From the IMG/VR virus record IMGVR_UViG_3300028490_000008, positions 1-62,248 of that record: a stretch of DNA of 62,248 nucleotides; one strand, 5' to 3'. Below are positions 5,240 to 36,288 of the stretch, in pieces. Position numbers and translations under genes: made by a program. This DNA is from a virus (Duplodnaviria; Caudoviricetes). Every line of letters begins with the position of its first letter. Within the stretch, counting starts at the first letter, position 1. The notes below the pieces were generated by a model, which worked only from the letters and a program-made list of their open reading frames with translations, was not told the DNA's origin and made no database searches.

Positions 5240-5240
5240 T

Positions 5241-12613: not shown

Positions 12614-12635
12614 TTTATGAAAACTACGCTATGAT
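12606..12635 (+). promoter_or_regulatory. Sigma70-type promoter TTGACT-N18-TATGAT
   Basis: Followed by a hairpin series rather than an ORF. Confidence 0.55.
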
Positions 12636-12641
12636 TGCAGT

Positions 12642-12786
12642 GCGTGTAACCCACGCCACCAGAAATGGTGTTGACCTTGTGTCATGCAGACTGTGTTCTC
12701 CCCTCAGTTCATGGTCTGCACTCCTTATACAATTTATCCAAGAATTTTTGCAAACTTATAGGGGTGGGAAACTGCCTCTATATTTC
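12642..12786 (+). ncRNA. Candidate sRNA-1 (about 145 nt, five hairpins)
   Basis: Stems GCGTG/CACGC, CACCA-GAAA-TGGTG, TGAC/GTCA, TGCAGACTGTG/CATGGTCTGCA, TATAGGGGTGG-GAAA-CTGCCTCTATA; G-U pairs fit only the + strand. Confidence 0.55.
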
Positions 12787-13422
12787 CCCTTGTAGCTCAA
12801 TCAGCTCAGCCAACAACTCATCCACTTCTCTATGATGTTCAACTATCTTAAGCTCAAGAGTCATTGCTTTTATAATTACAGTGGGGTTTAGTATCTCTTC
12901 CGGAATAGGAATACTCTTGATAAAGTCAATGTCTCCTATGTCTGTATTGTTTACACCAAGCTCCCAGTTGATTGCATCAATTACTTTTGGCGATCTTAGC
13001 CACATAGATATACTTGTAGCTGTTGCGATATCCTTACACTTGAAGTATTTGTAGTTCGTACCTGTTAGTGTAGGCACATCATCAATAGGGATAAACCTAA
13101 ACGCTCCGATGAATGGAGATAGTGCAGGAAGCACAACACAGTTCTGGTCTATTGCTTTGTTAGCCATGTACTCAGGTGTGTATTCAAACTCTTCTACTTT
13201 GGCAGCAGACACATTCATGTATGTAGGAGTGAAACACTTATAGTCAAGCACTCTAAACATACCAACTCTCGTCACTCTTATACCTCTCTTCTTTCTTGAC
13301 AGTTCACGCAATACAACGTCGTACTTTTTCATGAACACACCAATGCTCATTAGAGATATACCCCTACTGTGAAACTCTCTCTTTAATTCAGCAAACGAGT
13401 TGCTTTCGGGTTGTCTATACAT
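12778..13422 (-). CDS. Type I R-M specificity subunit (HsdS)-like half protein, one TRD plus helix
   Basis: MWLRSPKV..I...G....I.DIDFIKSIPIP followed by a coiled-coil-like helix; ATG at 13422 with AAGGA RBS. Confidence 0.5.
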   Translation of the reverse strand: MYRQPESNSFAELKREFHSRGISLMSIGVFMKKYDVVLRELSRKKRGIRVTRVGMFRVLDYKCFTPTYMNVSAAKVEEFEYTPEYMANKAIDQNCVVLPALSPFIGAFRFIPIDDVPTLTGTNYKYFKCKDIATATSISMWLRSPKVIDAINWELGVNNTDIGDIDFIKSIPIPEEILNPTVIIKAMTLELKIVEHHREVDELLAELIELQGEI

Positions 13423-13442
13423 GCTTATTCCTTTTCTCTTGG

Positions 13443-13533
13443 GTGTACGATATGGTATCGCCATTGCTAAGTACAATATAGTATCGTACACTTTGGTTGC
13501 TTAATTTAGACTGTACGTGGTAGTATCGTACAG
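13443..13533. promoter_or_regulatory. Operator-like inverted and direct repeats upstream of the HsdS-like gene
   Basis: IR GTGTACGATA 13443-52 / TATCGTACAC 13482-91; DR TAGTATCGTACA at 13479 and 13521; IR CTGTACG/CGTACAG 13511-13533. Confidence 0.5.
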
Positions 13534-13949
13534 GTAACGGAGATACAGAAACCCTCGTATTCATATGGTCAAGTTCACAACAGTACAGTAGTAAAGACAC
13601 ACTATAGAGATACAACACCCAAGAGACAAGACATAAGTACAGAGATGAAAGTATAAACACGAAGTGGTATTGTAAAGGTTTCATGGATCGGTGATTGCAT
13701 AAAGTGAGAGAATAATGGATGTTAAGAGTGTTGAGGGTGAGAGTCCAACTCGTGAACAAACTCGTGAAAGTGGAGCCCTTACGTGTGGGCAGACGCACCG
13801 CTCAAGAGCAGGGCAGGCTCCTATGTCTAGTTAAACCGTTGTGGGCTATTAACCTTCCATGTTGGTATTGTAGCTTGTTTGTCTTATATATGCAAGTATA
13901 GTAATTGTATGTGTTGTGGTTACAGTGTGTATTGATACGAATGTTTTGG

Positions 13950-14092
13950 AGGGAAGTAAGTAGGCGGATGAGCACCTACTTACAAAAGGAGGTAAAGTGT
14001 TAAACTTTGGGTTTCGTACTTGAAGTGGAAAGAGACTTCGTATACTGGAGTGTAATAGTTATTACTACAACCCTGCGAGCTTTTTACTCGAC
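13950..14092 (-). ncRNA. Candidate sRNA-2 (about 140 nt) with anti-SD ACCUCCUUUU
   Basis: Starts about 7 nt after TGCTATACT; four short hairpins, anti-SD, then a 9-bp stem GTAAGTAGG/CCTACTTAC. Confidence 0.5.
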
Positions 14093-21509: not shown

Positions 21510-23353
21510 TGGGTTCTACATTTAGCGGAAAATTATATGACAGAAGGTTTATGGGGAAGTACAACAACTTAAGTAGTATATATGCAGACATACTTCCTAA
21601 TGATATTAAAGAGGTTATACAGTGGTCGGAGTTTATCGTAGCCAATGTACCTCTTGTAGCATCAGCTCTGGACAAGATGTCGTCTGTTGCGATTACTTCA
21701 TTGCAGTATATGACTGATGACCTTAGTGAGATGACAACCAATGATGCTAAGTCTTGGAAAAGCATATTGGAAGAGAATATGGAAATAGAAGAGAAGTTGC
21801 AAGAGACTGGGTTCAACTACCTACTTAATGGTAATGTATTTTTGTCTGTATTCTTCCCTATACATAGAACAGTTACATGTATGAAGTGTAAGACAGAGTT
21901 GTCTCAAGACAGATTTACCTCTTCTAGTAGCCTGAAGCCTGAAATGGAAGAGATACTCATGCCTACCAATGGTAAGCGTGGGGGTAAGAAAGAAAAGGGC
22001 ACCAAGACCACAAAGAAGCAGAAAGTCTTAGTGTTCAAAGGTGGATGTCCTGCATGTGCCGCCAAGTCTATATTTACAATCAAAGATATCAAGGTCAAAG
22101 ATATGGGTGGTGTAAATATCGTAACATGGCCTATCAACAGTATAAACTTCGTAAGTGACAACATCACAGGTAGAAGTACATACTATTACCGAATGCCTAA
22201 TGCTAACCGTAAGATGATTACAGAGGGCTTCCTCGATATGATATTCCATCAACCATTGGACATGATAGAAGCAGCGGTGAAGAACACTACTGTCAAGTTT
22301 GACCAAGGTAAGGTGTTGCACCTACGAAGAAAGAAGATGTCTGGTACAAACACAGGATGGGGAATGCCTATCTTAACCTCATCGATACCAGAGATGATAT
22401 CACTACTCCTACTACGTAAGTCACAAGAGCGTATATTGTCAGACATGATCTTCCCTTTACGTGGACTATCACCTAAAGCAAGTGGCTCTGATGGTAATGC
22501 TGTATACAACTTTATGTCAGGTACAGACCTTAGTCAGAAAGTAGAGAACATGCTTAAGGGTCACAAGAATAACCCTACGAGTATCAAGTATTTCCCTATA
22601 CCACTAGACACAGTAACTGCATTTGGAGAGGGTAAGTCGCTGAACCTATCAGAGGAGATAGACCAAATCTCAACTATGATTATGACCTCTATTGGTGTAC
22701 CGATTGAATTCGTTAAGGGTGGACTGGGATACACCGCAGCCGGTGCGTCAATCCGTGTACTTGAAAATCAACTGATGGGTCTTACAAACTCAATGGAAAA
22801 GGTAGCCAATTTTGTTGCAAAGCAGATAGCAGTGTATACAGACAAGAAGCCTGTACATATTAAGATCGTACCATTCCGTATCATTGATGATATTGCAGAG
22901 AAGCAGATACTCATGAGCCTTTACCAAGGACAGAAGCTTTCAGATCATACTATGGCATCTATGTTCAAGTTGGATGCTACTACTGAGAATGAGCGTATGA
23001 GTGAAGAGATGAAGCAAGGTATACGTACGAGATCTGAACTTGAAGAGTATCAGCGTAACCTTGCACAGAACCTTGAGGAGAAAGCGAAGACTGAAGCAAT
23101 GCTCAGTACAAGCTCCACTCAACAGGTTAATCAGCAAGCTATTATGCAAGAGGCTGACCAGATGGCTGCACAACTCAATCAGATGGACTCTGGTATGAAG
23201 AAGTCAGAAATGGATCGTCTACAGAAAGAGAACTGGCTATTGTATGTTGCTACTAAGGAACGTATGGAGTTCAATGCTCAAAAGGACGCTACTTCCGCAG
23301 CTCATGACCAAAAAGCAGAAGAGATGGGCATGGCACCACAAGGACAACAGTAG
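21509..23353 (+). CDS. Putative portal protein with Zn-ribbon insertion
   Basis: 614 aa; PLVASALDK, NYLLNGNVF, VLHLR..SG..GWGMP, SIGVP.EF..GG fit the portal motif order; CMKC...CPAC insert. Confidence 0.65.
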   Translation: MGSTFSGKLYDRRFMGKYNNLSSIYADILPNDIKEVIQWSEFIVANVPLVASALDKMSSVAITSLQYMTDDLSEMTTNDAKSWKSILEENMEIEEKLQETGFNYLLNGNVFLSVFFPIHRTVTCMKCKTELSQDRFTSSSSLKPEMEEILMPTNGKRGGKKEKGTKTTKKQKVLVFKGGCPACAAKSIFTIKDIKVKDMGGVNIVTWPINSINFVSDNITGRSTYYYRMPNANRKMITEGFLDMIFHQPLDMIEAAVKNTTVKFDQGKVLHLRRKKMSGTNTGWGMPILTSSIPEMISLLLLRKSQERILSDMIFPLRGLSPKASGSDGNAVYNFMSGTDLSQKVENMLKGHKNNPTSIKYFPIPLDTVTAFGEGKSLNLSEEIDQISTMIMTSIGVPIEFVKGGLGYTAAGASIRVLENQLMGLTNSMEKVANFVAKQIAVYTDKKPVHIKIVPFRIIDDIAEKQILMSLYQGQKLSDHTMASMFKLDATTENERMSEEMKQGIRTRSELEEYQRNLAQNLEEKAKTEAMLSTSSTQQVNQQAIMQEADQMAAQLNQMDSGMKKSEMDRLQKENWLLYVATKERMEFNAQKDATSAAHDQKAEEMGMAPQGQQ

Positions 23354-23406
23354 TGTTTCCTTTTGGAAGCATTTACTGTATAATTGACAGACAAAAAGGA
23401 TAGCAA

Positions 23407-23862
23407 ATGACAAACAGTTTTATACATGCTGCATTAAAGAGTGGACTTCGTTTCTTGTCCAAGCATACGCTAGTGGATACATTCCATTGGGTTAACACGT
23501 TGGACTTCTGGAATACGTATGGCTCCATAAAGTTCTCTTTGACCGACGAGGTATGGAGAAGTGCCAATAGAGGATATGGATATTCAATAGGTGGAATACA
23601 GCAGACAGTTGATGGGTTCAAGGACATCAGTTTTGAGTATAAGACATCTACAGAGTCATGCTGTGACCACCTTAGAGTATATATCAATGGTCAGCGTATC
23701 TTGAACGCAGGAGGAGAGCATGGGTGGACAGCATTCACGTACACAGCTCCGGCATATATAGCAGACTGTCTTGTGCAGATCTATTACTACAAAGACGGAA
23801 GTGTCGCTAATGGTAGTGATGCTGTATGGGTTAGAAACCTAGAAATAAATAAGCACCAGTAA
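23407..23862 (+). CDS. Jelly-roll/carbohydrate-binding-like protein
   Basis: ISFEYKTSTESCCDHLRVYING...GEHGW...YYKDGS...GSDAVWV; TATAAT at 23379-23384. Confidence 0.6.
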   Translation: MTNSFIHAALKSGLRFLSKHTLVDTFHWVNTLDFWNTYGSIKFSLTDEVWRSANRGYGYSIGGIQQTVDGFKDISFEYKTSTESCCDHLRVYINGQRILNAGGEHGWTAFTYTAPAYIADCLVQIYYYKDGSVANGSDAVWVRNLEINKHQ

Positions 23863-23870
23863 GGATATCT

Positions 23871-24539
23871 ATGAAATTTACATCACCAGAGAACATCAAC
23901 TTCGCAGTAGAGTCTAACCTTAACTTTCCCAAAAAGAGCTATGCATACAAACAGATAATCCGTGAGATAGTATTGTTTGAAGACGACTTCACTAACGGTG
24001 CAGGAAAATGGTACAGTGGCACAGTAGTTGACGATGCCCGTACCGAGACAGGCAAGGCATTGAAGATAAGTGGTCAATATGGACATAACCTTTACGTAAA
24101 TCAGTTTATTGCACAAGATAGAACAAGCTATAGGATGGAGATTGATGTAGAGGTCAAGTACGAGTCCGGAAGATACTGTTACATCTATATGGGAATGCAG
24201 TCAGCTAGACCTAACTCAACAGCAAGTATTGCTAGACCAGGTGGAATTATCATGTTTGGATACTACTCTAGTCACTACAATCATGGAATATTCTCAATAG
24301 ATAACTGGGCAAGAATAGCTACAATCGGAAGCGGATATCAGAAGCTAGTCTATGAACAGGTTATGATAGGGCCAACTACTGCACGTATGAATACATATGT
24401 GAATGGCATGCTAATCGTATCAAGCACAAGATACAACATATCAACAGGTGGGCTAAGACCTACTTTCTACAAGCAAGGTAGTTATGACCACTTGAGAGTT
24501 GGTAGAGTAAAGGTAATACAGTTGCCTGACGAGTATTAA
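23871..24539 (+). CDS. Putative lectin-like beta-sandwich virion protein
   Basis: LFEDDF...TYVNG...RVGRVKV; aromatic and beta-rich. Confidence 0.55.
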   Translation: MKFTSPENINFAVESNLNFPKKSYAYKQIIREIVLFEDDFTNGAGKWYSGTVVDDARTETGKALKISGQYGHNLYVNQFIAQDRTSYRMEIDVEVKYESGRYCYIYMGMQSARPNSTASIARPGGIIMFGYYSSHYNHGIFSIDNWARIATIGSGYQKLVYEQVMIGPTTARMNTYVNGMLIVSSTRYNISTGGLRPTFYKQGSYDHLRVGRVKVIQLPDEY

Positions 24540-24540
24540 T

Positions 24541-24702
24541 ATGTCCAACAGCATAACCAATATGGCAAAGGGTGTATTTTACGGAGAGATACAAGACAAG
24601 AAGAAGACGAAAGTCGTGAACGAGCTTGTAAACCTAGTGTCTGGTTCGAGCAAAGCACCTAAGAAGATCAGCATAACAGACAGAATGAAGGGAATTAAAT
24701 GA
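24541..24702 (+). CDS. Small hypothetical protein (53 aa; absent from the ORF track)
   Basis: ATG 1 nt after the upstream TAA; its stop overlaps the next ATG (ATGA). Confidence 0.55.
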   Translation: MSNSITNMAKGVFYGEIQDKKKTKVVNELVNLVSGSSKAPKKISITDRMKGIK

Positions 24703-25433
24703 TACATCTAACATCAGAGGCAAACATGGATGCATTCGAGGCATCAAAACTCGCAGTTCGTGGTAAGCATGCATACTTTTATGTTGCACCACCACCCGTA
24801 ATAGAAGGAGAGGACAATCATAACTACTACTTTAATTATAACTTCGATGGGTCAAACCCTCTTGCCGGCGGAAACATAGTAGAGGATGCTAATGCCCTCA
24901 ATGGGTATGCTCTGTCTGTTACAGGAGGAGGAGCATTTGACATAGATGCGTATCTTATCAATGGAGATGACTTCAATATCGAAATGAGAATGCACGTTCC
25001 CCATAGGGACACAGGAACAATGTTCGGAGGATTGGTTCTTAACGAGATAGAGCCATCAGAACAATCCCTCATGCTTGCTATCATTGGAGCATACGAGCAA
25101 CTACCTCAACTTGGAGGGAAGCTCATATTGAGACAAGATGTTGAGCCTGACCAAGCAGAAGGTATCCCTTACGAAGATGGATACGTTGTGTTGTCTGCAG
25201 ACGTTAAGTTTGAGGATGGAGATATAACAACAGCTATATACATAAACGGGGAATTCCATAGAGAGAGCACATTTACCCCTGAGTCAGTGCCAGCCAGAAT
25301 TATACCGGGGCTTACTGTTTATGCAACCAATGGGAATATCCTGATTGATTACGTAAGAGCTTATGCATATGGTGATATCCCTGCTAACTACGGAGAGCCT
25401 GTGCAAACGCCTTCTCGTAGTGAAGGTAAATAA
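24699..25433 (+). CDS. Putative ConA-like beta-sandwich protein
   Basis: YNFDG...FNIEMRM...IYING...IDYVRAY. Confidence 0.55.
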   Translation: MIHLTSEANMDAFEASKLAVRGKHAYFYVAPPPVIEGEDNHNYYFNYNFDGSNPLAGGNIVEDANALNGYALSVTGGGAFDIDAYLINGDDFNIEMRMHVPHRDTGTMFGGLVLNEIEPSEQSLMLAIIGAYEQLPQLGGKLILRQDVEPDQAEGIPYEDGYVVLSADVKFEDGDITTAIYINGEFHRESTFTPESVPARIIPGLTVYATNGNILIDYVRAYAYGDIPANYGEPVQTPSRSEGK

Positions 25434-25434
25434 C

Positions 25435-25878
25435 ATGGCTGCTAGAACAGAGAGAAGAGAACCATTAGAGGCGGAGATACAAAAGGCTATAATGCAGTAT
25501 CTGGCAACGAGGAAAGATGTTGTGTTTTGGAGACAGAACTCAGGATCTTTTGTTGCACCGGTAATACGAGCTATTGCAGGTGTCCTTGAAAGATTTGGTC
25601 TTGGTCGTAGAAAGATAGCTATAATGGCAGCAGTCAAGAAGGCAGCAGGTCATTACAAGTGTACAAGTGTAAGTGGTATACCAGACATAACAGCAATTTA
25701 CCGTGGTGTATATGTGGGTCTTGAGGTTAAGACAAAGACTGGGCGACTTACTAAGGACCAAAAAGTCATGCACGAGCTTATGCACAAGCGAGGCGTGAAG
25801 GTTGTTATTGTAAGAAGTGTACAAGAGGTCATGAAAGTCTTAGCAGACGTAGATGAGCTTTTTGTGAAGGTTAAGTAG
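25435..25878 (+). CDS. VRR-NUC domain nuclease
   Basis: EAEIQKAI..YL...WRQNSG...GIPDI...LEVKT..GRLT.DQ...IVRS; start revised to ATG 25435. Confidence 0.85.
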   Translation: MAARTERREPLEAEIQKAIMQYLATRKDVVFWRQNSGSFVAPVIRAIAGVLERFGLGRRKIAIMAAVKKAAGHYKCTSVSGIPDITAIYRGVYVGLEVKTKTGRLTKDQKVMHELMHKRGVKVVIVRSVQEVMKVLADVDELFVKVK

Positions 25879-25884
25879 GACAAT

Positions 25885-26514
25885 ATGAATAAGCAACAAT
25901 ACTCAGCATGGTTACAACAGTTCTTCCCAAAGTCAGAGATGACTACTCTTGGTAAGTATATTGAGAAGTGTAACATGGTGGAGGTGTTGTTTATAAATGA
26001 AGCAGACGAGTCTTTTCAGCTCTTGGATACAAAAGCACTTGAGGCAAACATAGTGAAGTCAAGTGATGCCGTATTCTTCAGTCAGTATGACCACTTCAGT
26101 GTTGGCTCAAAGAGTATGCGACTACAAGACTTCGATGTTCTTATTGACTGGGGAGATAAGAGTTCTGTGGCTGTGTTCTACAATGACAATACAGTTGTTG
26201 ACAGCTACTCAGATATAGGCACTCTGGTTATCAGAACAGGTCAAGAGTCTATAGCATTATTCTTGTCTTGGTATCTGTCACTAGACGTTGTTGTATCAGA
26301 GATAGACCAGTCGTGCTCAGACTCATGGTCAAGGATAGAGTCATTGCCTATGCCATCTATGGATTATGTAGACAATGAATTACTAATGAAGGCACTGAAA
26401 GAAGTAGGTGTTGCAGAGAACAGAATAGCCCGTAATGCAAAAGAGATGATGGTTCGACTCCGAACTATGAGAGAGAGTATTGTTCACGACATACCTCTTG
26501 TGGATAGTCTATAA
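25885..26514 (+). CDS. Hypothetical protein
   Basis: 209-aa ORF with AGGA RBS. Confidence 0.7.
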   Translation: MNKQQYSAWLQQFFPKSEMTTLGKYIEKCNMVEVLFINEADESFQLLDTKALEANIVKSSDAVFFSQYDHFSVGSKSMRLQDFDVLIDWGDKSSVAVFYNDNTVVDSYSDIGTLVIRTGQESIALFLSWYLSLDVVVSEIDQSCSDSWSRIESLPMPSMDYVDNELLMKALKEVGVAENRIARNAKEMMVRLRTMRESIVHDIPLVDSL

Positions 26515-26572
26515 AAAACTCTCCATTTTAGATATACTTACACAATAAACAATTACCCTAAAGGAAAATGAA

Positions 26573-27622
26573 ATGCCTAAGAAACCAATCAACCTATACA
26601 AGAACCTACTTAGACCACTGTCTCACAGAGAGCTTGACGACAACTTCGTACAATTAGAGAGTCTATTAGAAGGCGATAGAAACAAGAATGTTATTGTTAT
26701 CCCTAACTCAGCAGAGAGAGGTGGGTACACATCATTACTCTCTCCAGTGTTCTTTGGTAACGGTATAGCTCCTGTGTCTATTGCGGACAACGGTAATGCT
26801 ACTGCTGGATTTGAGGAGTTTCAACGTGTATATTCCCTTTCGACAGGAGTGGATAAGTTGGTAGCTCATAAGTTTGAGCAGTCTCACATCTCACCAGATG
26901 GGGCGATGTATGCAGGGATGTATGAGAACAAGCTAGAGGTAGTAATAGTGGATGGGGGTCAGTCTACAACATTCAATCTTCCTCCTCAAAATGGAGATCC
27001 AGACAAGGGGTTACAGAAGGATATGTGGTGGATGTCGCCTACTGAGATTGTCGTTATAAGCTTTGAAGTACACGATGCAAGAATATACACCATAGATAAA
27101 GAGAATGTTGCAATCACAGAAAGAGATGTCTTTTCTAACATGATAGAGGACGATCACGAAGGATTTGTGAAAGGGAGACATTTGATAGCAAGTTCAGGGG
27201 ATACATCTAACGAGATAAGAATAGCAGACTTGTCTACAGGTGCATCATATACTGTCCCTAGTAAGCCTAATATGGGAACTGAGCAGTTCTATCAAATGAT
27301 GATGCTTGGCTTTGACGGAGATACACTATTGTCTTATGGTGTCATGGAAGATGCCAATGAGATTGCAGTACCTACAATAATGTCAGTTAATAGTAGTGGA
27401 GCGACCTTTATCAAGGCTGATAGCCCGAACCTTTTCTTAGGGGTTATAGGAGCTGATGCTATGCAGGAAAAAGCTACGATGAAAGAACTTATCATAGGCG
27501 GTAGGACATATTTTATCCTTGAGAAAGGGTATTTGGATGCAGTTCTTTTTGATGTAGAAGATAGAGTTATGTATACAGCCTCAGTGCTTGGTTCAAAGCT
27601 TGCTGTAAGAAACGAGGTGTAG
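26573..27622 (+). CDS. Putative virion appendage protein, possibly beta-propeller-like
   Basis: N-terminal RPLSHRELDDNF motif; beta-rich; TATACT at 26533-26538. Confidence 0.55.
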   Translation: MPKKPINLYKNLLRPLSHRELDDNFVQLESLLEGDRNKNVIVIPNSAERGGYTSLLSPVFFGNGIAPVSIADNGNATAGFEEFQRVYSLSTGVDKLVAHKFEQSHISPDGAMYAGMYENKLEVVIVDGGQSTTFNLPPQNGDPDKGLQKDMWWMSPTEIVVISFEVHDARIYTIDKENVAITERDVFSNMIEDDHEGFVKGRHLIASSGDTSNEIRIADLSTGASYTVPSKPNMGTEQFYQMMMLGFDGDTLLSYGVMEDANEIAVPTIMSVNSSGATFIKADSPNLFLGVIGADAMQEKATMKELIIGGRTYFILEKGYLDAVLFDVEDRVMYTASVLGSKLAVRNEV

Positions 27623-27623
27623 C

Positions 27624-28442
27624 ATGAATTGGGTAAGCACAGACGCAACGTCTAGTGGCTACGGAGTCCCTATTGTTGCCCCTACTGATGGACTAGAAAC
27701 AGATTGTGTCAAGAGAGAAGAAGTATCTACTGACATAAGCCCAGGTAGTACATGGACCAAAACTGTCGATGGGTATGATGAAGAAATCATAACTGAGGGC
27801 ACTGGCACTGGAACAGGGGAAACTTATTCTGCTCCGGGCTATGTGGAAAGTGGATATATAGAAGGTGGCTCTTGCCAACAAGAGGAACAATATGTCGCTG
27901 ATGGCTATGTAGCTTCTGGATACGTAGAAGGACAAGAAGCACCAGATGGTTACTACAAGAGTGGTTATGTCTCAGCAGGATATGCAGAGGGTGACACGCA
28001 GTCTGCTCCGAAGTATGTCGCTGACGGTTATGTCGCTGACGGTTATGTTGAAGGAAGCAGAACATCTGCACCTAAATATATGGCTGATGGTTACGTAGCT
28101 GATGGCTATGTAGAAGGAGGAGAGCCTGTTTGTACTATAGGAACTCCTGATGTGATAACTCACGTATGGCATCCTGCTGTATGGGAGAGATGGGTACTCG
28201 ATCCTGTTATAACACCATATGTACACAGTGCATATTTTGAGAGTGATGTTGTGTCTGTTGGTTGTCACCCATACAAGGAAGCAAAGCTAGATCCTTTTGA
28301 AGAGATGTACTTATTGTTCCCGTTCGGAGATACTGTTGCAGGCTTGCTAAAGAATAAGCAGTTGAGTTCAGAGTTTGGACTGAGAATGAGCATACAAGAC
28401 AGAGCTGACTTGGGCGAGAGAGTATTAGAGGGTGCAGTATGA
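27624..28442 (+). CDS. Protein with five YVxxGYVxxGYVEG repeat blocks
   Basis: YVADGYVADGYVEG-type repeats; exact 15-bp DNA duplication at 28014-28043. Confidence 0.75.
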   Translation: MNWVSTDATSSGYGVPIVAPTDGLETDCVKREEVSTDISPGSTWTKTVDGYDEEIITEGTGTGTGETYSAPGYVESGYIEGGSCQQEEQYVADGYVASGYVEGQEAPDGYYKSGYVSAGYAEGDTQSAPKYVADGYVADGYVEGSRTSAPKYMADGYVADGYVEGGEPVCTIGTPDVITHVWHPAVWERWVLDPVITPYVHSAYFESDVVSVGCHPYKEAKLDPFEEMYLLFPFGDTVAGLLKNKQLSSEFGLRMSIQDRADLGERVLEGAV

Positions 28443-28942
28443 GTTTCATGAGTGTATTCACAGACAAGAAAGATGTACAGATTAAAGACGTAGAGAAGCT
28501 CATCAGAGAACTGAAAGATGTTCAGATGAGTATCGTTGCCTTTACTAATGACTACACTATTGACTCAGACATATCTGAAATGATAGGCAAGTTGAAGGCT
28601 CAAAACCCTAACGAACTTAGTGGTGAAACCATTATTGAGTTTCTGGTTTATCTTAGTGATAAGACGAAGACTAAGGGAGATATGACACAATCACACTATA
28701 CTGACACCATGATGAAAGTTGTTCACGCCAAATTGGAACTACTTGTCATATACCATACAGGATTAGTAAGAGGGAGTGTATTGAGACAGATATTTTCTGT
28801 ATCTACAATACTTCCAATAATCGTAGTGATAATGTTTGCTCTTGTTGCATTAGTAACAGTGCATAAGTTTGACCCTATGCTGTTCTCTGATATGGGACTT
28901 ACCAACAAACAACATACACACACAAAAGGTGGTACGAAGTGA
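28439..28942 (+). CDS. Membrane protein with C-terminal TM helix
   Basis: ILPIIVVIMFALVALVTV; ATGA and GTGA overlaps. Confidence 0.75.
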   Translation: MSFMSVFTDKKDVQIKDVEKLIRELKDVQMSIVAFTNDYTIDSDISEMIGKLKAQNPNELSGETIIEFLVYLSDKTKTKGDMTQSHYTDTMMKVVHAKLELLVIYHTGLVRGSVLRQIFSVSTILPIIVVIMFALVALVTVHKFDPMLFSDMGLTNKQHTHTKGGTK

Positions 28943-29574
28943 TTTCATTTTTCAAAGACTTATTTAGCGGTACATCAGAAGATACAGATGTAGATGAGGA
29001 CAAGCTTGACTCTGTTAAGAACAAGATGACAATACGTCTATCTGATACAAAGACTCCTTCATTAGATTACCCAAGAGGGTTCGATGCGAACAAGCCAACG
29101 ATTGTAATCCTAGATGACAGTTCTGGAGCCACTTTGTTGTTTGATGACAATATTAAAGAGTTGCAAGCAGAAGGTGGTCTTGCAGCAGAACTACAGTTCC
29201 TCAAGGTGAGCACACCACAGGCTGTTTTTATGCTCCGAGGGGAATTGGATAAGGGAAGACTAAATAACATCGTAGGGGCTGTGCTAGACATCACTATAGG
29301 CGGATATGCTATCGTTGATGGACACACTGTGATACTTGACGGGATAGATGCACATAAAATCATAAGTGACAGATTTCCAAAGGCTGCTATGAGGTTCTTT
29401 ACATCTCACTCAATGAACGAGAAGAATGCAGAGATATATAGGTTCATGAAGAAGTATGAAGAGTATGCAGGCGAGAGCATTGTAGAGAAGACATACATGA
29501 AGAACCCTTTCACTACGAACCGTATAGATATGCTTAGGGATATTCTAGGGGAAATAAATGATGTTAAGAGTTAG
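28939..29574 (+). CDS. Stand-alone response-regulator receiver-like protein
   Basis: IVILDD, VLDI (candidate phospho-Asp), DG.D, FFTSH, MKNP; no output domain seen. Confidence 0.75.
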   Translation: MISFFKDLFSGTSEDTDVDEDKLDSVKNKMTIRLSDTKTPSLDYPRGFDANKPTIVILDDSSGATLLFDDNIKELQAEGGLAAELQFLKVSTPQAVFMLRGELDKGRLNNIVGAVLDITIGGYAIVDGHTVILDGIDAHKIISDRFPKAAMRFFTSHSMNEKNAEIYRFMKKYEEYAGESIVEKTYMKNPFTTNRIDMLRDILGEINDVKS

Positions 29575-30961
29575 AGCCTTTGCTGATCCGGAGAGTTTAT
29601 CGTTTGTTGCCAAGTTCTTCATTGTATTTGCTATTGCATATGCATTCGTCGTAACAGTTGCCTTCTACTTCATCCTTGGTGAGTGGAGGACATATGCACA
29701 AAGCACAGTGTCCACTGTGTCAATAGCGAACAACGGTTCTATAACTGAGACGTGTGAGATACTTAACTGTGCATATTTTGATGTAGACGGGGTTAGAGTA
29801 TATCACCAAAAGAACGGTGAGTATACAGAGCTTGCACATAAAAATGTAGGGTTTACAGATTTAATCGAAGACCTATTGGTGATACCAGTAGAAACAAAAG
29901 ACCACTCAGTTACACTTGGTCTATCTGTCAGAAGCCTGTGTACATTCTATACAAACACAATTCTCACCTTGTATGTTTTCCTTATGGTGCTGTCACTTAT
30001 CTTTCTTATGCGATATCTTATAAGCAGTAATATAAAGTCTCTCAAAGACGGGGCAAGCAACACTGCATCCCTGCATAATAAGAATATGTCAATGCTTGCA
30101 GAGCAGTTACATCACGAGCTGAACACTCCTCTGTCTGTAGTGAAAGAACTGTGCGACAAAGTGTTCTCTAATATGGAGGTAGCATCTACTTGTAATAGAG
30201 TTGACAAAGGCTCGTCGCCATGTACCTCTTGCACAATGCCTGAGAAGTTTGCAGAGATGTCAAACTTCAAGAGGATAATAGATAACAATATCAGACAGGC
30301 TTTCGTATTTATAGAGAGAATGGCTGATGTTAAACAGATACGATACTCAAATGGTAACAAGAGTATATACGACATAGCCAAAGCCACCTTTGACATAATG
30401 GGTGTATACAATAGGACAAACTATACATACGATATAGATGTGTCCCTACGTAATTACAGAATAGACCATGGGTCAGGGCTCAAAAACCATGAGCTTATGA
30501 ACATCTTGGTTAATCATATAAAGAACTCGCTAGAAGCAGGGTCTTGTCATATCGTTGTGTCTCTGAATAAAGTTGTACACTACAAGATGAATAGACTAGA
30601 CAGAAGCCTAGCAAAGGCTATTGATTTCCTAAGCACTCATGATTTAGGCGTAGGTACACCACTTGCAATAGTGATACTGTATAAGTTCATGTCAACAAAG
30701 GCGAGACACAACACTAAGCTTGCACGAGTTGCACTTATTGACAACGGAACAGGTATACCAGAGGAGTTCCAAAGTAAGATATTCAACTTGAATTCATCAA
30801 CCAAGAAGAAGAATGGTGTTATTCGTGGAGCAGGTCTATATCTCAACAGAGAGATACTTAGGGACTCAAGAGGTGATCTTTGGTTACATAAGACAAACAA
30901 GACTGGAACCACGTTTATACTAGATGTTCCCTGTGAGCAAGTCCCTAGCAGATTTGCATAA
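29558..30961 (+). CDS. Membrane sensor histidine kinase
   Basis: Two TM helices; H-box HHELNTPL, N-box NHIKNSLEA, G1 DNGTGIP, F-box KIF, G2 GAGLY. Confidence 0.92.
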   Translation: MMLRVRAFADPESLSFVAKFFIVFAIAYAFVVTVAFYFILGEWRTYAQSTVSTVSIANNGSITETCEILNCAYFDVDGVRVYHQKNGEYTELAHKNVGFTDLIEDLLVIPVETKDHSVTLGLSVRSLCTFYTNTILTLYVFLMVLSLIFLMRYLISSNIKSLKDGASNTASLHNKNMSMLAEQLHHELNTPLSVVKELCDKVFSNMEVASTCNRVDKGSSPCTSCTMPEKFAEMSNFKRIIDNNIRQAFVFIERMADVKQIRYSNGNKSIYDIAKATFDIMGVYNRTNYTYDIDVSLRNYRIDHGSGLKNHELMNILVNHIKNSLEAGSCHIVVSLNKVVHYKMNRLDRSLAKAIDFLSTHDLGVGTPLAIVILYKFMSTKARHNTKLARVALIDNGTGIPEEFQSKIFNLNSSTKKKNGVIRGAGLYLNREILRDSRGDLWLHKTNKTGTTFILDVPCEQVPSRFA

Positions 30962-31013
30962 AAAATAGTACAATAAGAACTGAGTTAAACTCAACCAATT
31001 TTAGGAGAAAAAT

Positions 31014-32351
31014 ATGCCAAACGCAGAAATGGTAGCCTTGCTACAACACTTAATGGCGATCTCTGGTGCCCATACAGGTACAGCGATCAAAAACGCTATA
31101 GACAATCTTGTCGGAACACATGATATTGATGTCGATGCTTTACAAGCGAAGATCCAGGTAATTCAAGACATTCTTGATGCTGACCCTTCGACACCGGAGT
31201 TTGACCAAGCTCAGAACATCATCACATCACTTAATGCAATCCTTGCTCGTCTTTCAGCAGTAGAAACAACTATTGCTCGCTTAGAGGGTGACGAAACAGT
31301 TGCAGGTTCAGTAGACTTTAAAGTAGCGGCTGAGAGAGCACGTGCAATGGCGGCTGAACAAGCTAACGCTGCATGTTGTTCAACTAACGGTACTGCACTT
31401 GCTGCACACATCGCTGCATACGACACATTCGTTACAGCAACAAATGCATCACTTACAACTCTTGCATCTGATGTTGCAGACAATACTCAAGCTATCACTG
31501 ATGAGGTTGCTCGTGCAACTGCTGCTGAAACAGCTATCAATGATGCTCTTGCAGCTATTCAGACTGCAACTGGTGCTTCTGATGCTGACCTTGCTGACCT
31601 TACTACTCTCGTTGGAGACATTGTAACTGGTACAGGGCTTAATGCTGATGGTTCGTTTACACCAGACACCGCAGCTTCAGATGCAACAAACCTATACGAG
31701 TACATTCATGATGTAACTGCTGAAGGTGCTGACCGTGCGAATACACTACGTAGAGCAATCAGACGTCTAGCACGTAAGTCTCGTCTTGCTGATAATGCAC
31801 TTGATGCACGTCTTGACATTCTTGAAGGTGACGCAACTGTCGCTGGTTCAATTATGCAAATCGTTACTGATGCAGTTGCTACTGAAGAGACTAGAGCACT
31901 AGCGGCTGAAGCTGTACTTGCTCAAGCTGTTGCAGATGAGGAAACTCGTGCTACTGCTGCTGAAGTTGCATTACAGGCTCAGATCGATAGTCTTTCTGGT
32001 GGTGGTTCTGGTTCTATCCAGGGTGTCCGTGATGAACTTGACGATACACAAGTAGGTGCAGGTCTTGAAGCTGATGGTTCATATGCACCAGATGCTACAA
32101 CTGAGTACCTTGGTTCAGCTACATCTTTAAAAGATGCTGACAAGAAACTTGACGTAGAGATTAAAGGTCTTGAAGATCGCAAGGCTGACCGTACAGAAGT
32201 TGTATTGTCTGCTGATATCGCATCTATCGACTTCTCTGCTCTAGGTACAATCTTCTTAGATGCACTTAACTGTGGACTTACAGGTGGGACAGATTGTGAC
32301 GTAGTTACAACTACTCCTGCAGGTGGTGGCGGTGACGGTGCAGTTCTATAA
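31014..32351 (+). CDS. Ala-rich coiled-coil virion fibre-like protein
   Basis: Repeated E..RA.AAE and LEGD.TVAGS units; AGGAG RBS; TACAAT at 30969-30974. Confidence 0.65.
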   Translation: MPNAEMVALLQHLMAISGAHTGTAIKNAIDNLVGTHDIDVDALQAKIQVIQDILDADPSTPEFDQAQNIITSLNAILARLSAVETTIARLEGDETVAGSVDFKVAAERARAMAAEQANAACCSTNGTALAAHIAAYDTFVTATNASLTTLASDVADNTQAITDEVARATAAETAINDALAAIQTATGASDADLADLTTLVGDIVTGTGLNADGSFTPDTAASDATNLYEYIHDVTAEGADRANTLRRAIRRLARKSRLADNALDARLDILEGDATVAGSIMQIVTDAVATEETRALAAEAVLAQAVADEETRATAAEVALQAQIDSLSGGGSGSIQGVRDELDDTQVGAGLEADGSYAPDATTEYLGSATSLKDADKKLDVEIKGLEDRKADRTEVVLSADIASIDFSALGTIFLDALNCGLTGGTDCDVVTTTPAGGGGDGAVL

Positions 32352-32366
32352 GGACTGTGCTTTATA

Positions 32367-32388
32367 GGAGACTCCTCACCGAGTCTCC
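32367..32388 (+). terminator. Hairpin after the 31014 gene (terminator or stabiliser)
   Basis: GGAGACTC-ctcacc-GAGTCTCC; weak U-tail. Confidence 0.5.
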
Positions 32389-32410
32389 GTTAAAATACAG
32401 GAGGTGTTAG

Positions 32411-32962
32411 ATGAAGAGAATGGTGCTTTTTTCTGGAGGCGTAGACTCAACAGCTCTGCTTTTACAAGAGCTTGAGAGTGGTAGTGATGTCCTGGTGGTT
32501 CATCTTATACTCAAGACAGAAACAAATAGATGGCAACTAGAGATGGTTGCTTGTGCAAGAGTGATAGCAGAACTACACGCACGAGGGTATGACTTTGAAT
32601 ATATGGATGTGACAGTAGATGCAACCGCAATGGGTGGAGGTAGAGACAGTTGGTATTATATCCAAACAGCAGCTAATATTGCCAGAAACAGAGAAGACAT
32701 TATTGCTGTAGCTGTAGGGTTTATAGATGACGAGGCAGAAGCTATAGCCTTCCCTCAAACCATAAACAACACCGAGCTTTTCAGAGGTTGCAAGGGGACA
32801 AGTTGTGCTGAACTTACATATCCTCTTGCAGGCAAAACAAAGAAAGAGCTTATCGCTAAAATGGGTAATCTCTTTGAATGCACGTTCTCTTGCAGGGTTC
32901 CCGTAGGCATAGAGCCATGTGGACAATGCAATACTTGCAAAGCCATTAAAGAAGCATTGTAG
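32411..32962 (+). CDS. queC: QueC-like PP-loop ATPase (7-cyano-7-deazaguanine synthase family)
   Basis: VLFSGGVDST PP-loop; PL...TK; TFSC...PCGQCNTC Zn site. Confidence 0.75.
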   Translation: MKRMVLFSGGVDSTALLLQELESGSDVLVVHLILKTETNRWQLEMVACARVIAELHARGYDFEYMDVTVDATAMGGGRDSWYYIQTAANIARNREDIIAVAVGFIDDEAEAIAFPQTINNTELFRGCKGTSCAELTYPLAGKTKKELIAKMGNLFECTFSCRVPVGIEPCGQCNTCKAIKEAL

Positions 32963-32976
32963 CATGAAATCTTTTC

Positions 32977-32985
32977 TGCTATAAT
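32977..32985 (+). promoter_or_regulatory. Extended -10 promoter TGCTATAAT
   Basis: Perfect consensus upstream of 33023. Confidence 0.7.
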
Positions 32986-33022
32986 TGTATGAAACAAAAA
33001 CAAAAACACTAAAGGAACACAC

Positions 33023-34108
33023 ATGCCATACCTAGCACCAACAGCAAGCGTAAATAACTTGTTAGTAAACGAAGTATCAAATGACGCAACATTCACAGCA
33101 CCAGAGACAGGAATATACCTAGTTTCTTCTTTAAAGATAGAAAGTGGGAGCACAGATGGATCTGGCAACCTTACAATGGAAGCAACTGCAGGTGGAACAT
33201 CTGTCCCTACTATGGACGGAGTAGCTCCAACTACAACTGGTGATGTTCTACTTTCTAAGTATCACTTCACTAAAGATACAGAATATACAATCATGGGGTC
33301 TGGTTCAAGACTTACGTGTATGATTGCTCACTCTGCATATTTTACAGACAGAACAGATAAAGGTTCAGAGCTTACATTTGATGAAATGGATGAGAACTTT
33401 ACTCTTGGTGCGATTGCTCTTGATAAGATTGAGAAGGAAATGGGCACAGCTCTATTAAAGCAAGCTAAGCCAGATGTTGTTATCGACTTATTCAATGGTA
33501 TCAGTGAAGAGCAACTCACAGTATCTACAGGGCACGACCTTATGCTTGGTGTAGATGACAACGGTGCTATCGGTTGGGGTAGAATTGTATCTTCTGAAGG
33601 TGACTACAACTTCTCTGTCACTAGAGAAATCAGTATTGACCTAGAAGAGGACTTGGATGCAATGCATGGCCCTATCACTCTTCACCACGATGGAGAGACG
33701 GGATACTTCCTTAAGTGTAACAAGAAGTATAATGATGGATATGGAAACATTGCGTGGAGTGGCTCGGCTACTATCTCTAATGGGGATCTTATTGCGAGAC
33801 TAATGGAAGAGTTGACGCTTGCTGAAGTAAACAAGCTTAACTACTCAAGACCATACTCTGTATGTGTTGCTAGAGTTAACGACCATACGAAGTCAGGACT
33901 AGGACTGTGTGTTGTTAATAACCTAGACACTGGCGTACCAACACCGGTAGTATTTGAGGCAAGAGAGACATCGGCTTATTTCAATAGAGTGCTTACAACT
34001 CTTGCATACGAAGTTAATAGCTACAACTACCCTATTAAAAGATGGTGTGCTCTTGGTCTTGATGAGTATGAGAATATTACTTTTGACCCAACTTCTCCGG
34101 CAGCCTAA
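33023..34108 (+). CDS. Putative tail/virion appendage protein
   Basis: FTAPETGIYLV beta motif; internal RTDKGSELTFDEMDENF motif. Confidence 0.6.
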   Translation: MPYLAPTASVNNLLVNEVSNDATFTAPETGIYLVSSLKIESGSTDGSGNLTMEATAGGTSVPTMDGVAPTTTGDVLLSKYHFTKDTEYTIMGSGSRLTCMIAHSAYFTDRTDKGSELTFDEMDENFTLGAIALDKIEKEMGTALLKQAKPDVVIDLFNGISEEQLTVSTGHDLMLGVDDNGAIGWGRIVSSEGDYNFSVTREISIDLEEDLDAMHGPITLHHDGETGYFLKCNKKYNDGYGNIAWSGSATISNGDLIARLMEELTLAEVNKLNYSRPYSVCVARVNDHTKSGLGLCVVNNLDTGVPTPVVFEARETSAYFNRVLTTLAYEVNSYNYPIKRWCALGLDEYENITFDPTSPAA

Positions 34109-34740
34109 TGAGGCACGATAACCTCACTGCGGTTATCCCTCACTACAACACCCCAAAGTCCCTCCTTGCGAGGGCAATAAAATCCCTTGACAAATATGGA
34201 ATAAAGTATATCATCGTAGATGATGGCAGCGACGAAAAGCATAAGGCTGGACTACTGCAATACAAAGATAGAGTTATATTCCTGAAAGAGAATAAGGGAC
34301 AGGGGTATGCTAATTATGTGGGATTTTATGCCGTAGAGACAAAGTGGGCAATGAGAATGGACAGTGATGATTACCTCACGACAGATCCATCTTATGATGA
34401 TGAGGCAGTTGTGCATACACAAGCATCTATATACCCACAGCCAAAATCAGCAAACGAGTTGTTTGCGAAGCCATATGCTTATTTAGCCGGTGCTGTTGCA
34501 AGATCATCTGTGTATGTAAAAGTGTACTCTGACATAGTGTCGGTTAGGATGATGGAAGATATAGAAGCCATGGGTAACATGTTTGGTAACAATATGACAA
34601 TGAAGCACCATGACACTATATGGTATGCATACGAGAGTAAAAGAGAAGGTAGTGTGACAGGAAGTAGAACTCCAGGTGAATGCAGTGCTATCAAAAAGAA
34701 GATAATCAAGGCTCACGCTTTAAAATTCAAGACTAGGTAA
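34108..34740 (+). CDS. Glycosyltransferase family 2
   Basis: VIPHYN, IVDDGS, ENKGQG.A, DSDD, ED. Confidence 0.9.
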   Translation: MRHDNLTAVIPHYNTPKSLLARAIKSLDKYGIKYIIVDDGSDEKHKAGLLQYKDRVIFLKENKGQGYANYVGFYAVETKWAMRMDSDDYLTTDPSYDDEAVVHTQASIYPQPKSANELFAKPYAYLAGAVARSSVYVKVYSDIVSVRMMEDIEAMGNMFGNNMTMKHHDTIWYAYESKREGSVTGSRTPGECSAIKKKIIKAHALKFKTR

Positions 34741-34789
34741 ACGTATGCATATTATGGCATAATTCGTAACTAGATATTAAGGAGACACA

Positions 34790-35389
34790 ATGGCAGGTGC
34801 GTTATGGAAAAAAGAGGTTGTAATAAGACAGAACTCAAGTATAGGGATTGTAGCAGCTCAGAACTGGACAAAGAATTGGCTTGCCTCTTTTCAAGACGAG
34901 CCTGACAATATAGACGGGAACGGAGAATATATAGACCACTTCTTCGGTGACTTGTTTGATGCTAGAACCGGGAACTTGTATCGTATCTTTTCTGATGCAG
35001 CAGGAATAAAGTACAGCATGACAGATGTGATCTTCGATGTGCTTATTACATCAAAGTTTGTTCCATGGGTTAAGGTGAGCGATAATCCAGACCTAGCAGT
35101 AGATAGTGATTTCCTTATCACTCGTGGTGGGGTTGCTGATGTTGTAGCAGACTTTATCAAGGAAGCCAAAGTGGTGAATGATGCAGGCATTATCGTGGGA
35201 AACAACTTGACTTTAGCTCACTCTCCTGTTGGTGGATTGATAGGTGGTAAGTGTAACATAAAGTTCGCTAGTGGTGTTCTTGAAGAGGTGGATTGTACAG
35301 TTAGTGGCAACGTGGCAACTGTTGTTCCTGATACTTCCGGGGAATACAATGGTCAGATATGTATGGTGAGTTACCTAATTAACATATAG
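34790..35389 (+). CDS. Putative virion protein
   Basis: AAGGAG RBS; C-terminal TLAHSPVGG domain shared with 11623-12045. Confidence 0.7.
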   Translation: MAGALWKKEVVIRQNSSIGIVAAQNWTKNWLASFQDEPDNIDGNGEYIDHFFGDLFDARTGNLYRIFSDAAGIKYSMTDVIFDVLITSKFVPWVKVSDNPDLAVDSDFLITRGGVADVVADFIKEAKVVNDAGIIVGNNLTLAHSPVGGLIGGKCNIKFASGVLEEVDCTVSGNVATVVPDTSGEYNGQICMVSYLINI

Positions 35390-35408
35390 TGCTTTTCTTA
35401 CAACACTA

Positions 35409-35417
35409 TGCTATAAT
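35409..35417 (+). promoter_or_regulatory. Extended -10 promoter TGCTATAAT
   Basis: Perfect consensus upstream of 35446. Confidence 0.7.
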
Positions 35418-35445
35418 GATATAAAAATTTATACGCAAGGGAACA

Positions 35446-36288
35446 GTGATGTTGAAATTGGCTATGGCAGGACTAGAATACGATAAAGAAGCCTTCTTAG
35501 GAGGGATGATTGCAAAGACAATAGGTAAAGGTCTTGCAAAGCATGGACCTACTAAGGGAATGAAAGCAAAAGGTATGGGGATGATGAATGCTCATGCCTC
35601 CAGAGTAAGTAAAGCAAATCCTATGGCTGCCAGACTTAAGAGTACCGGAGGAATGGGTATCAAGGGAACCATCGGTAATATGATGGCCAGAAACTCAACA
35701 GGCAAGATGGCTGCACGTGGTAGAGCCATGATGCAATCAAAAGCTAAATCCAACGTACAAGCAAGCAGAGTAAATAGACGTGTTACTAGAGCTACAAATG
35801 AAATGGCAGGGAAAAGCAGAACTGTATCAGGTGCTCCTGCAGGAAGTATGCAAGACAATATGGCTAGAGGTAAGATTAAGTGGTCTCCTAGTCAAACCAG
35901 TGCCGTTCAAGGTGCAAAAGGTAAGGTCACATCAACTCCTGTTAAAACTCCAACTCAACAAGCTACAATAATGAACCCTAGCAAGATGACTCCTGCCAAC
36001 AATGTTCCTAATCCTAACGTGCCGAATGTACCGAAAGGGACACCTTCAACTACACCTGCTCCTTCTGGGGTAGGAACGACTGCAAATACTACTGTTTCAA
36101 GTCCTGCGGCAGTACCTCCTAAAGTGCCGAAGAGTAAAGGCTTCCTCAAAGATGTACACAAGTCATATAAGCAGACAGGTATGTATAAAGACTTTGGTAA
36201 TAAGCCATTGTATGCTGCCGGTGGTGTATCTGCGTATGCTGCAGGTGGCGGTGGTGGTGGTGGTTCACCTGTAGTAGTTAACAACTAA
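35446..36288 (+). CDS. Basic Met/Gly/Lys-rich low-complexity protein with N-terminal KLA and DKEA motifs
   Basis: MMLKLAMAGLEYDKEAFLGGMIAKTIGKGLAK; Pro/Thr-rich middle. Confidence 0.7.
   Translation: MMLKLAMAGLEYDKEAFLGGMIAKTIGKGLAKHGPTKGMKAKGMGMMNAHASRVSKANPMAARLKSTGGMGIKGTIGNMMARNSTGKMAARGRAMMQSKAKSNVQASRVNRRVTRATNEMAGKSRTVSGAPAGSMQDNMARGKIKWSPSQTSAVQGAKGKVTSTPVKTPTQQATIMNPSKMTPANNVPNPNVPNVPKGTPSTTPAPSGVGTTANTTVSSPAAVPPKVPKSKGFLKDVHKSYKQTGMYKDFGNKPLYAAGGVSAYAAGGGGGGGSPVVVNN

Follow-up and report, generated by a model that had tools for sequence, protein, structure and literature searches.

The window analysed here, the whole 62,248-bp IMG/VR record IMGVR_UViG_3300028490_000008 of a tailed virus (Duplodnaviria; Caudoviricetes), contains three overlapping genes between positions 28439 and 30961. 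These encode a tail-anchored membrane protein, a stand-alone CheY-like receiver and a two-transmembrane sensor histidine kinase. The kinase and the receiver very probably form a real and phage-specific pair. The three genes together are, with moderate confidence, a self-contained signalling module of a large, mostly jumbo-sized, uncultured phage lineage, acting in the manner proposed below. A more tentative part of that proposal is an output that is localised at the membrane and passes through the third protein. The three genes and the sites within them, all on the plus strand, are as follows.

28439–28942, +, 167-residue tail-anchored membrane protein, the third, co-conserved component (open reading frame, hydropathy)
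28939–29574, +, 211-residue stand-alone CheY-like receiver of a divergent phage-borne family (open reading frame with GTG start, structural model, family alignment)
28939–28971, +, amphipathic segment MISFFKDLFSG of the receiver, putative membrane-targeting helix (hydrophobic moment across 65 relatives)
29287–29289, +, codon of receiver Asp117, predicted phospho-acceptor (invariant in the family, alignment with CheY)
29299–29340, +, β-hairpin insertion of the receiver, residues 121–134, a hallmark of the family that follows the phospho-acceptor strand and precedes helix 3 (model, gap in the profile alignment)
29558–30961, +, 467-residue two-transmembrane sensor histidine kinase (open reading frame, HATPase_c, profile, model)
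29687–29935, +, periplasmic sensor domain of the kinase, residues ~44–126, ~80 residues (alignment, model)
30113–30115, +, codon (CAC) of kinase His186, predicted autophosphorylation site in the H-box HHELNTPL (sequence, family alignment)

The genes of the membrane protein, the receiver and the kinase form a chain in which start and stop codons overlap, and the open reading frames and junctions are as the first-pass annotation of this DNA had described them. The first two genes share a GTGA overlap at 28939–28942, and the receiver and kinase genes overlap by 17 nucleotides (29558–29574). The GTG start of the receiver is preceded by an AAGGTGG stretch; its relatives use ATG for the MISF beginning. 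The stop codon of the kinase is followed by a 52-nucleotide spacer.

The kinase and the receiver

The kinase has two hydrophobic segments, which start near residues 12 and 127, and matches the Pfam family HATPase_c above the cut-off with an expect value (E) of 1.5e-9. Pfam HisKA is not matched by the window kinase. In a family alignment of 26 members at 26–66% identity, the His and Glu of the H-box are invariant. The same is true of N318/N322, D394-x-G396-x-G398 and G423-x-G425 (alignment numbering), which make up the N, G1 and G2 boxes, and of a Y-S-N-G..K block that is specific to this family (e.g. RYSNGNK). A profile of the kinase compared with the PDB finds solved histidine kinases or CheA only (38 at E<=1e-3, best 2.9e-12), and in this comparison the H-box aligns with that of FixL.

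The AlphaFold2 model of the kinase (predicted local distance difference test, pLDDT, 80) consists of a first transmembrane helix, a small α/β periplasmic domain (residues 61–122), a second transmembrane helix continuous with a helix of the dimerisation and histidine phosphotransfer (DHp) domain, and the catalytic domain. There is no HAMP domain in the model; a single long helix leads from the second transmembrane segment into the DHp domain, whose loop bears cysteines. The top Foldseek matches include FixL chimeras, HK853, LvrB and YycG, from E 5.9e-10. The H-box His lies on the first DHp helix and the Bergerat-fold domain carries the N, G1 and G2 boxes, as in class I (HisKA-type) kinases. The first-pass annotation had called a complete two-transmembrane histidine kinase with its His codon near 30113. 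The intact H, N, G1 and G2 boxes and the histidine-kinase fold support that call, and CAC at 30113 does encode residue 186.

Two sets of cysteines are seen in the kinase. In the sensor domain, the columns of Cys66 and Cys71 (window numbering) are conserved in at least 90% of the 26 sequences, and the pair suggests a disulphide-stabilised or redox-sensitive sensor domain. In ESM Atlas the periplasmic part is linked by structure, though weakly, to the sensor domains of kinases from bacteria. The hairpin loop of the DHp domain (30191–30232, plus strand, residues 212–225) contains C212, C222 and C225 in a C-x9-C-x2-C arrangement. These are kept in the close relatives of the window clade and are absent from the distant clade, and they may form a cytoplasmic metal or redox site. 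The kinases of the window clade also carry an insertion of ~55 residues in the catalytic domain between the N-box and the G1 box (~30590–30720, plus strand), with helices modelled at ~345–383; the distant kinases, of ~400 residues, are without it.

The receiver of the window has no Pfam or PHROG match, and its identity rests on its fold, on a deeper profile of 65 members and on the residues that are invariant within the family. In the AlphaFold2 model (pLDDT 86) a (βα)5 sandwich begins at residue 52, with strands at 54–59, 86–91, 111–117, 150–155 and 185–187 alternating with helices. The top Foldseek matches in the PDB are 2qxy, Spo0F, RcsB, FleR and CheY (E 4e-5 to 1e-3, template modelling score by target 0.6–0.7), of which 2qxy, Spo0F and RcsB are the best (E 4e-5, score 0.64–0.69). 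The model is poor over residues 1–51, an extension that contains a single short helix. The first-pass annotation had described a receiver without a DNA-binding output. This description holds, as neither the library scans nor the model contain an output domain or any further domain beyond the receiver fold.

When 1.84 billion representatives were searched exhaustively with a profile, 247 relatives of the receiver were obtained at E<=1e-3, 84 of them at E<=1e-10. The best 150 of the 247 are all 133–308 residues long, in keeping with a stand-alone form. In an alignment of 65 relatives at 18–62% identity, D59, D60, D117 and K188 are the only invariant columns and T155 is kept in at least 90%; together these residues make up the acid pocket of a receiver. 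The profile of the 65 members matches CheY and other receivers of known structure (best E 9.7e-5), with D117 aligned to the acceptor DIT motif of Thermotoga CheY. The β-hairpin that follows, with modelled strands at 121–126 and 129–134, appears as a 10-residue gap relative to CheY, and its consensus DITLGG...DGVD is conserved.

Taken by the usual marks of a receiver domain, the protein has the (βα)5 fold and the DD/D/T/K pocket, and its score lies below the Pfam gathering threshold. PF00072 is matched by 24 of the 65 family members (best E 3.2e-5). As Pfam misses the window receiver yet recognises these wider relatives, the window receiver belongs to a divergent subfamily that is linked to classical receivers through intermediates. 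Judged from their sequences, both enzymes keep every residue needed for His-to-Asp phosphotransfer.

Distribution of the trio among phages

The kinase family was found on 23 distinct IMG/VR contigs of 10–273 kb, 10 of which exceed 100 kb. The contig sets come from peptide-pattern scans confirmed by tblastn, by which only relatives that keep the family motifs are detectable. Among the phage contigs the kinases are 26–56% identical and the gene order is conserved. The receiver was located by a hidden Markov model search of every open reading frame of the loci. Upstream DNA is available in 22 viral contigs (contig L014 is cut at the kinase and so falls outside this count), and 21 of these have the receiver upstream of the kinase and on its strand. 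In 20 of these 21 the two genes overlap or lie no more than 160 nucleotides apart.

The membrane protein is also conserved in position. A jackhmmer search with the 167-residue protein alone as seed finds a relative of 140–217 residues directly upstream of the receiver in 17 of the 21 contigs, to which a weak match in L021 can be added. In the remaining contigs (L016, L023 and L024) the same place is taken by an open reading frame of 169–203 residues with a single C-terminal hydrophobic segment.

Four of the genomes are 97–100% complete (188–273 kb), and each holds exactly one receiver of the family and one kinase of this type. Three of the four hold one unrelated HATPase_c match in addition, and none of the four contains a canonical PF00072 receiver above the cut-off. 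With one pair and no canonical receiver per complete genome, the adjacent receiver is the only phage-encoded partner available to the kinase.

A peptide-pattern scan of this type over 185,579 prokaryotic species genomes (one genome per species) yields no relatives of the receiver, and relatives of the kinase on two contigs of metagenome-assembled genomes only. These are short (2,032 and 5,790 bp) and show the identical gene order, and are probably mis-binned pieces of phage. The 50,697 deposited phage records contain no match for the receiver (tblastn) or for 6 kb of the window (blastn); the sole tblastn match for the kinase in these records is sasA of Microcystis phage MaAM05, which is weak and covers 20% of the query. 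The first-pass annotation had named as its refutation a set of nearest homologues that are chromosomal and lack conservation in phages, and had pointed to synteny as the means of telling the two apart. The homologues lie on large phage contigs and essentially none on chromosomes, and the order of the trio recurs in the phage contigs, with only the two short metagenome-assembled contigs otherwise. The trio thus appears to be a self-contained and vertically kept phage module and not a loan from the host.

Proposed mechanism and alternatives

The 167-residue protein consists of a helical soluble N-terminal part of ~112 residues, a single hydrophobic segment at ~113–149 and a short C-terminal tail. 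It has no signal peptide and no Pfam or PHROG match. In complex predictions, the receiver paired with residues 1–112 of the membrane protein gave scores of 0.31 and 0.00, against a mark of 0.32, and these are counted neither for nor against a contact.

The N-terminal tip of the receiver, MISFFKDLFSG, had been likened in the first-pass annotation to a membrane-targeting helix, and its cationic amphipathic character is indeed kept across the family in silico. The best 11-residue window in the first 14 residues of each of the 65 relatives was compared with matched windows taken from other parts of these proteins. The hydrophobic moment averages 0.58 at the tip and 0.35 in the background (Mann–Whitney p 1.7e-26), and 69% of the relatives lie above the 90th percentile of the background. 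Most of the tips have a net charge of +1 to +5. The tip has a pLDDT below 50 in the receiver model. It is conserved as a property and not as a sequence, which is the pattern of membrane-binding amphipathic helices.

In the proposed mechanism, a periplasmic or envelope cue would be read by the small extracytoplasmic Cys-pair domain of the kinase, which would autophosphorylate on His186; the motifs and the fold of the protein point to this step. The phosphoryl group would pass to Asp117 of the adjacent receiver, as the intact acid pocket, the strict adjacency and the single pair per genome suggest. The receiver would probably lie next to the kinase, bound to the cytoplasmic membrane from inside the cell, and its output would be a phosphorylation-dependent protein contact and not transcription. 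The location at the membrane and the contact-based output are proposed because the receiver has no DNA-binding domain and has a conserved cationic amphipathic N-terminus. The tail-anchored protein is put forward as a partner since no gene besides the pair and this one is constant. By synteny it would be the likeliest one, either as the target of the receiver or in an accessory role as a regulator of kinase activity.

Several observations weigh against this reading. Neither the window receiver nor 17 close relatives match PF00072 even at E 10, and no receiver among solved structures is matched by the window sequence or by a profile of the close family. The membrane-protein alignment contains no invariant residue, and ESM Atlas provides no usable recognisable fold for this protein; as there is neither a conserved residue nor a recognisable fold, a role for the protein follows from its position alone. 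In contig L006 the receiver and the kinase are parted by 1 kb with two open reading frames, and in L019 (14% complete) the kinase occurs without a receiver. Absence from bacteria, moreover, refers to this family and not to histidine kinases in general. In L019 the place of the receiver is taken by open reading frames of 307 residues and 185 residues, the latter rich in Pro, Thr and Gln (3948–5425). As that contig is 14% complete, its receiver may lie elsewhere in the genome.

A private, membrane-localised circuit is ranked first among the readings considered, and interference with host signalling second. Under the latter, which is unlikely, the phage kinase would act on host regulators, or the receiver would drain phosphoryl groups from host kinases, with the result that the envelope or motility is rewired. 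The receiver is without an output domain, as phosphate sinks are, and the H-box of the kinase, which can be aligned with that of FixL, belongs to the common HisKA type. Neither a canonical receiver nor a DNA-binding regulator of this kind is encoded by the complete phage genomes, and any transcriptional effect would for that reason need host factors. However, the kinase and the receiver are strictly paired, with one of each per genome, and both are far diverged, the kinase in its family motifs and the receiver in the β-hairpin beside the acceptor Asp. Divergence combined with strict pairing suggests a circuit that is insulated from the partners in the host, and not one that mimics them. It is possible, and is proposed here with reserve, that the module is an insulated sensory organ of the phage, which reads the envelope or the surroundings and tunes infection post-translationally without host regulators. 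In a large sub-clade, the ~90-residue and DUF3373-like proteins described below might be its ligand-side parts.

The first-pass annotation had proposed a late switch, for example for lysis timing or superinfection sensing. On this reading the membrane protein encoded at 28439 would be a holin-like or antiholin-like effector. Each of the three proteins is bound to the membrane or probably associated with it and the kinase is predicted to sense the periplasm, and the secreted ~90-residue protein (11 loci) and the ~400-residue protein with a signal peptide (9 loci) point to the envelope. Such a switch is nevertheless distinctly unlikely. Among the 10 open reading frames of 25363–34108, no lysis enzyme or holin family is matched in Pfam or PHROGs, and neither an endolysin, a spanin nor a recognisable holin stands beside the window trio in these scans. 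A large soluble N-terminal part with a C-terminal anchor would be unusual for a holin, and the neighbours of the trio vary between phages.

Two further explanations are less probable still. If the proteins were a degenerate pseudo-receiver and pseudo-kinase that serve as a structural element or scaffold, possibly of the virion, this could account for a receiver too divergent for Pfam and for the ~55-residue catalytic-domain insertion in the kinases of the window clade. However, all catalytic residues of both proteins are invariant in the family, which is unexpected for pseudo-enzymes, and the two transmembrane helices of the kinase make a location in the virion unlikely, so that this explanation is very improbable. 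The least probable of all is that the phage took up a host two-component system in recent times, as a moron without a role specific to phages. Annotations of two-component genes do occur now and then in phage genomes: BFVD lists response regulators of uncultured phages, and two-component proteins are reported as well represented in phages of ammonia oxidisers in 10.64898/2026.05.02.722434. A recent capture is contradicted by the 185,579 species genomes, in which the receiver has no relative and the kinase is limited to the two short metagenome-assembled contigs, and by the spread of the family across phage contigs at 26–56% kinase identity with conserved order. The guanine + cytosine content of the trio region (0.405–0.424) also matches that of the window, which is even throughout (0.39–0.45), and is not distinct.

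Genomic surroundings and known systems

The gene preceding the trio is coupled to it, and the features on either side are listed below with those found past the kinase in related loci.

27624–28442, +, 272-residue YVADG-repeat protein, translationally coupled to the trio (open reading frame, repeats)
L004, L005, L007, L013, L015, L017, L019, L021 and L022, at ~6.8–8.8 kb in each locus, just past the kinase, ~90-residue and ~400-residue proteins

The 272-residue protein contains a repeated YVADGYV..GYVEG motif. Its gene shares an ATGA overlap at 28439–28442 with the membrane-protein gene, and the gene of a 349-residue protein stops 1 nucleotide ahead of it. The first-pass annotation had chained the trio to this repeat gene and to further appendage genes, with no visible break. 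The ATGA overlap supports the chaining to the repeat gene, but an appendage or virion identity of the neighbours has no match with a named function behind it, since the neighbouring proteins of 349, 272, 445, 361, 807, 614, 222 and 244 residues have no function-naming Pfam or PHROG match. A scan of 23000–35500 found 21 promoter-like sites where 31 were expected and 6 terminator-like sites where 6.2 were expected, with no excess over shuffled sequences; this is consistent with the lack of a break, but is weak evidence for it.

The label of a virion-gene operon finds no support in the related phages, where the genes beyond the trio vary between contigs and are often on the opposite strand. The nearest IMG/VR relative (G001/L002, 187,664 bp, with direct terminal repeats and rated 100% complete) has its Terminase_6N match at 126.6 kb, ~47 kb from the trio. 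The 349-, 272- and 445-residue neighbours of the window recur only in this closest relative, except that the 445-residue protein is also found in L008 and L011. The counterpart of the 272-residue gene is a 264-residue gene in the same place, found in L002 only, and the 272-residue gene is thus outside the conserved module. The 445-residue protein is encoded directly after the kinase (31014–32351, plus strand) and is alanine-rich and coiled-coil-looking; its relatives likewise follow the kinase gene, in just those three contigs (L002, L008 and L011), and the copy in L008 gives weak matches to coiled-coil families.

In 11 related loci the kinase is followed by a ~90-residue protein with a signal-peptide-like N-terminus, and in 9 loci this is followed in turn by a ~400-residue protein with a hydrophobic, signal-peptide-like N-terminus. 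The ~400-residue protein of L017 matches DUF3373 (E 5e-10). Relatives of these two proteins are not found in the window, and their occurrence points to envelope proteins that travel with the module in part of the family, with no direct bearing on the phage of the window.

The window is soundly read as part of a large phage. The record is 33% complete by CheckV, and the protein cluster that includes the window kinase is also recorded on a contig of 192,328 bp. This contig and the relative of 187,664 bp support the reading, as do three genes of the window itself. An open reading frame of 1,411 residues (40132–44367, plus strand) contains Rpb2 domains 3 and 6 (RNA polymerase β) fused to Rpb1 domains 1 and 2 (N-terminal β′). 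It is a piece of a multisubunit RNA polymerase of the phage, and its β–β′N fusion is unusual. Two genes past the kinase is a 183-residue QueC-like PP-loop protein (32411–32962, plus strand; Pfam QueC 1.2e-7, phrog_1550 3.9e-16), which hints at 7-deazaguanine chemistry in this phage. The third is a VRR-NUC/Holliday-junction-resolvase-like nuclease (25363–25878, plus strand; phrog_93 1.2e-20), which lies amid genes that had been taken for virion genes in the first-pass annotation.

Most of the large open reading frames (those of 807, 614, 940, 565, 756, 1323 and 1107 residues) have no Pfam matches, and their sole PHROG match is that of the 940-residue frame to a PHROG of unknown function. Phage_sheath_1 and Baseplate_J are not matched in the window or in G001, and Terminase_6N is matched in G001 only. 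ARAGORN finds no tRNA genes in the 62 kb. Genes on the minus strand are confined to the 8000–14000 stretch (8689–13798), where the GC skew falls from ~+0.2 to ~0 or negative values, and which may represent a divergently transcribed unit or a switch connected with replication. The stretch is present, in small shares (0.19 and 0.05), in only two DNA runs, both labelled hydrothermal vent metagenome, and no RNA run is listed for it; the two runs were not used as evidence of habitat or expression.

Phage sensing is mostly thought to rely on borrowed host regulators or on small peptide or quorum signals. If the reading given here is right, a conserved kinase/receiver circuit that is lacking from cells would be a virus-owned environmental sensor, and three genes, one His and one Asp would provide a handle on what a lytic jumbo phage senses during infection. 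The receivers constitute a new subfamily that is missed by current domain models, and for this reason the two-component parts of viromes are probably undercounted. With no DNA-binding output and a membrane-seeking tip, the module is also a candidate for purely post-translational, membrane-localised phospho-signalling.

The literature searched, outside of which subscription journals and supplements largely fall, contains no description of a conserved phage-specific module of kinase, receiver and membrane protein, and none of five signalling terms occurs in PMC13037316. A published phage counterpart is cREC, a divergent receiver fold of jumbo phages with conserved catalytic aspartates, described by Iyer and co-workers (PMC7824862). 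According to that description, cREC never occurs with histidine kinases and is tied to genes of NAD+/ADP-ribose processing. The window family is like it in being a divergent receiver fold of jumbo phages, and unlike it in that 21 of 22 contigs have a histidine kinase gene directly beside it. An assignment of the window receiver to cREC was rejected, as its gene overlaps that of a histidine kinase; the two are set apart by the published description and not by sequence.

Two-component parts are also known from giant eukaryotic viruses (Ectocarpus virus, Marseillevirus and Tupanvirus) and as sporadic annotations in uncultured phages, and the receiver folds of these viruses in BFVD match the model of the window receiver at E 6e-5 to 1e-3. 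Those of the giant viruses are mostly hybrid kinases of 460–930 residues, and none is a sequence relative of the window pair.

The tip of the receiver can be compared with the amphipathic helices of MinD, FtsA, MreB and SepF, as all are short, cationic and terminal with a high hydrophobic moment; this is a likeness of kind and not homology. The membrane-targeting helices of MinD and FtsA are C-terminal, whereas the receiver tip is N-terminal. For the third protein, comparison can be made with MgrB, SafA, MzrA, LiaF and YycH/YycI, which are small membrane accessory proteins co-encoded with sensor kinases. The protein encoded at 28439 resembles these in being a small, operon-encoded membrane protein that is conserved with a kinase. 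It differs in that its soluble part is N-terminal and probably cytoplasmic and its anchor C-terminal, and it has no similarity in sequence or fold to the named families.

On the evidence of sequence and modelled fold, the module would work like a classical two-component pair with a receiver of the CheY/Spo0F type, in a phage-specific form. The kinase is like those of the HK853–RR468 (Thermotoga), KinA/B–Spo0F and CheA–CheY systems in its H, N, G1 and G2 motifs and in its DHp and catalytic fold, and the receiver is like Spo0F and CheY in its (βα)5 fold, its DD/D/T/K pocket and its lack of an output domain. In contrast to classical kinases, that of the window carries family motifs of the RYSNGNK type and is without HAMP. 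In contrast to classical receivers, that of the window is below Pfam detection, has an N-terminal extension of ~50 residues with an amphipathic tip, and bears a β-hairpin of ~10 residues after the acceptor Asp. Unlike classical two-component systems, the window pair is encoded by a phage and its family is practically absent from cellular genomes, and unlike classical pairs, the phage pair is accompanied by the tail-anchored protein or by an open reading frame of the same architecture at all 21 receivers.

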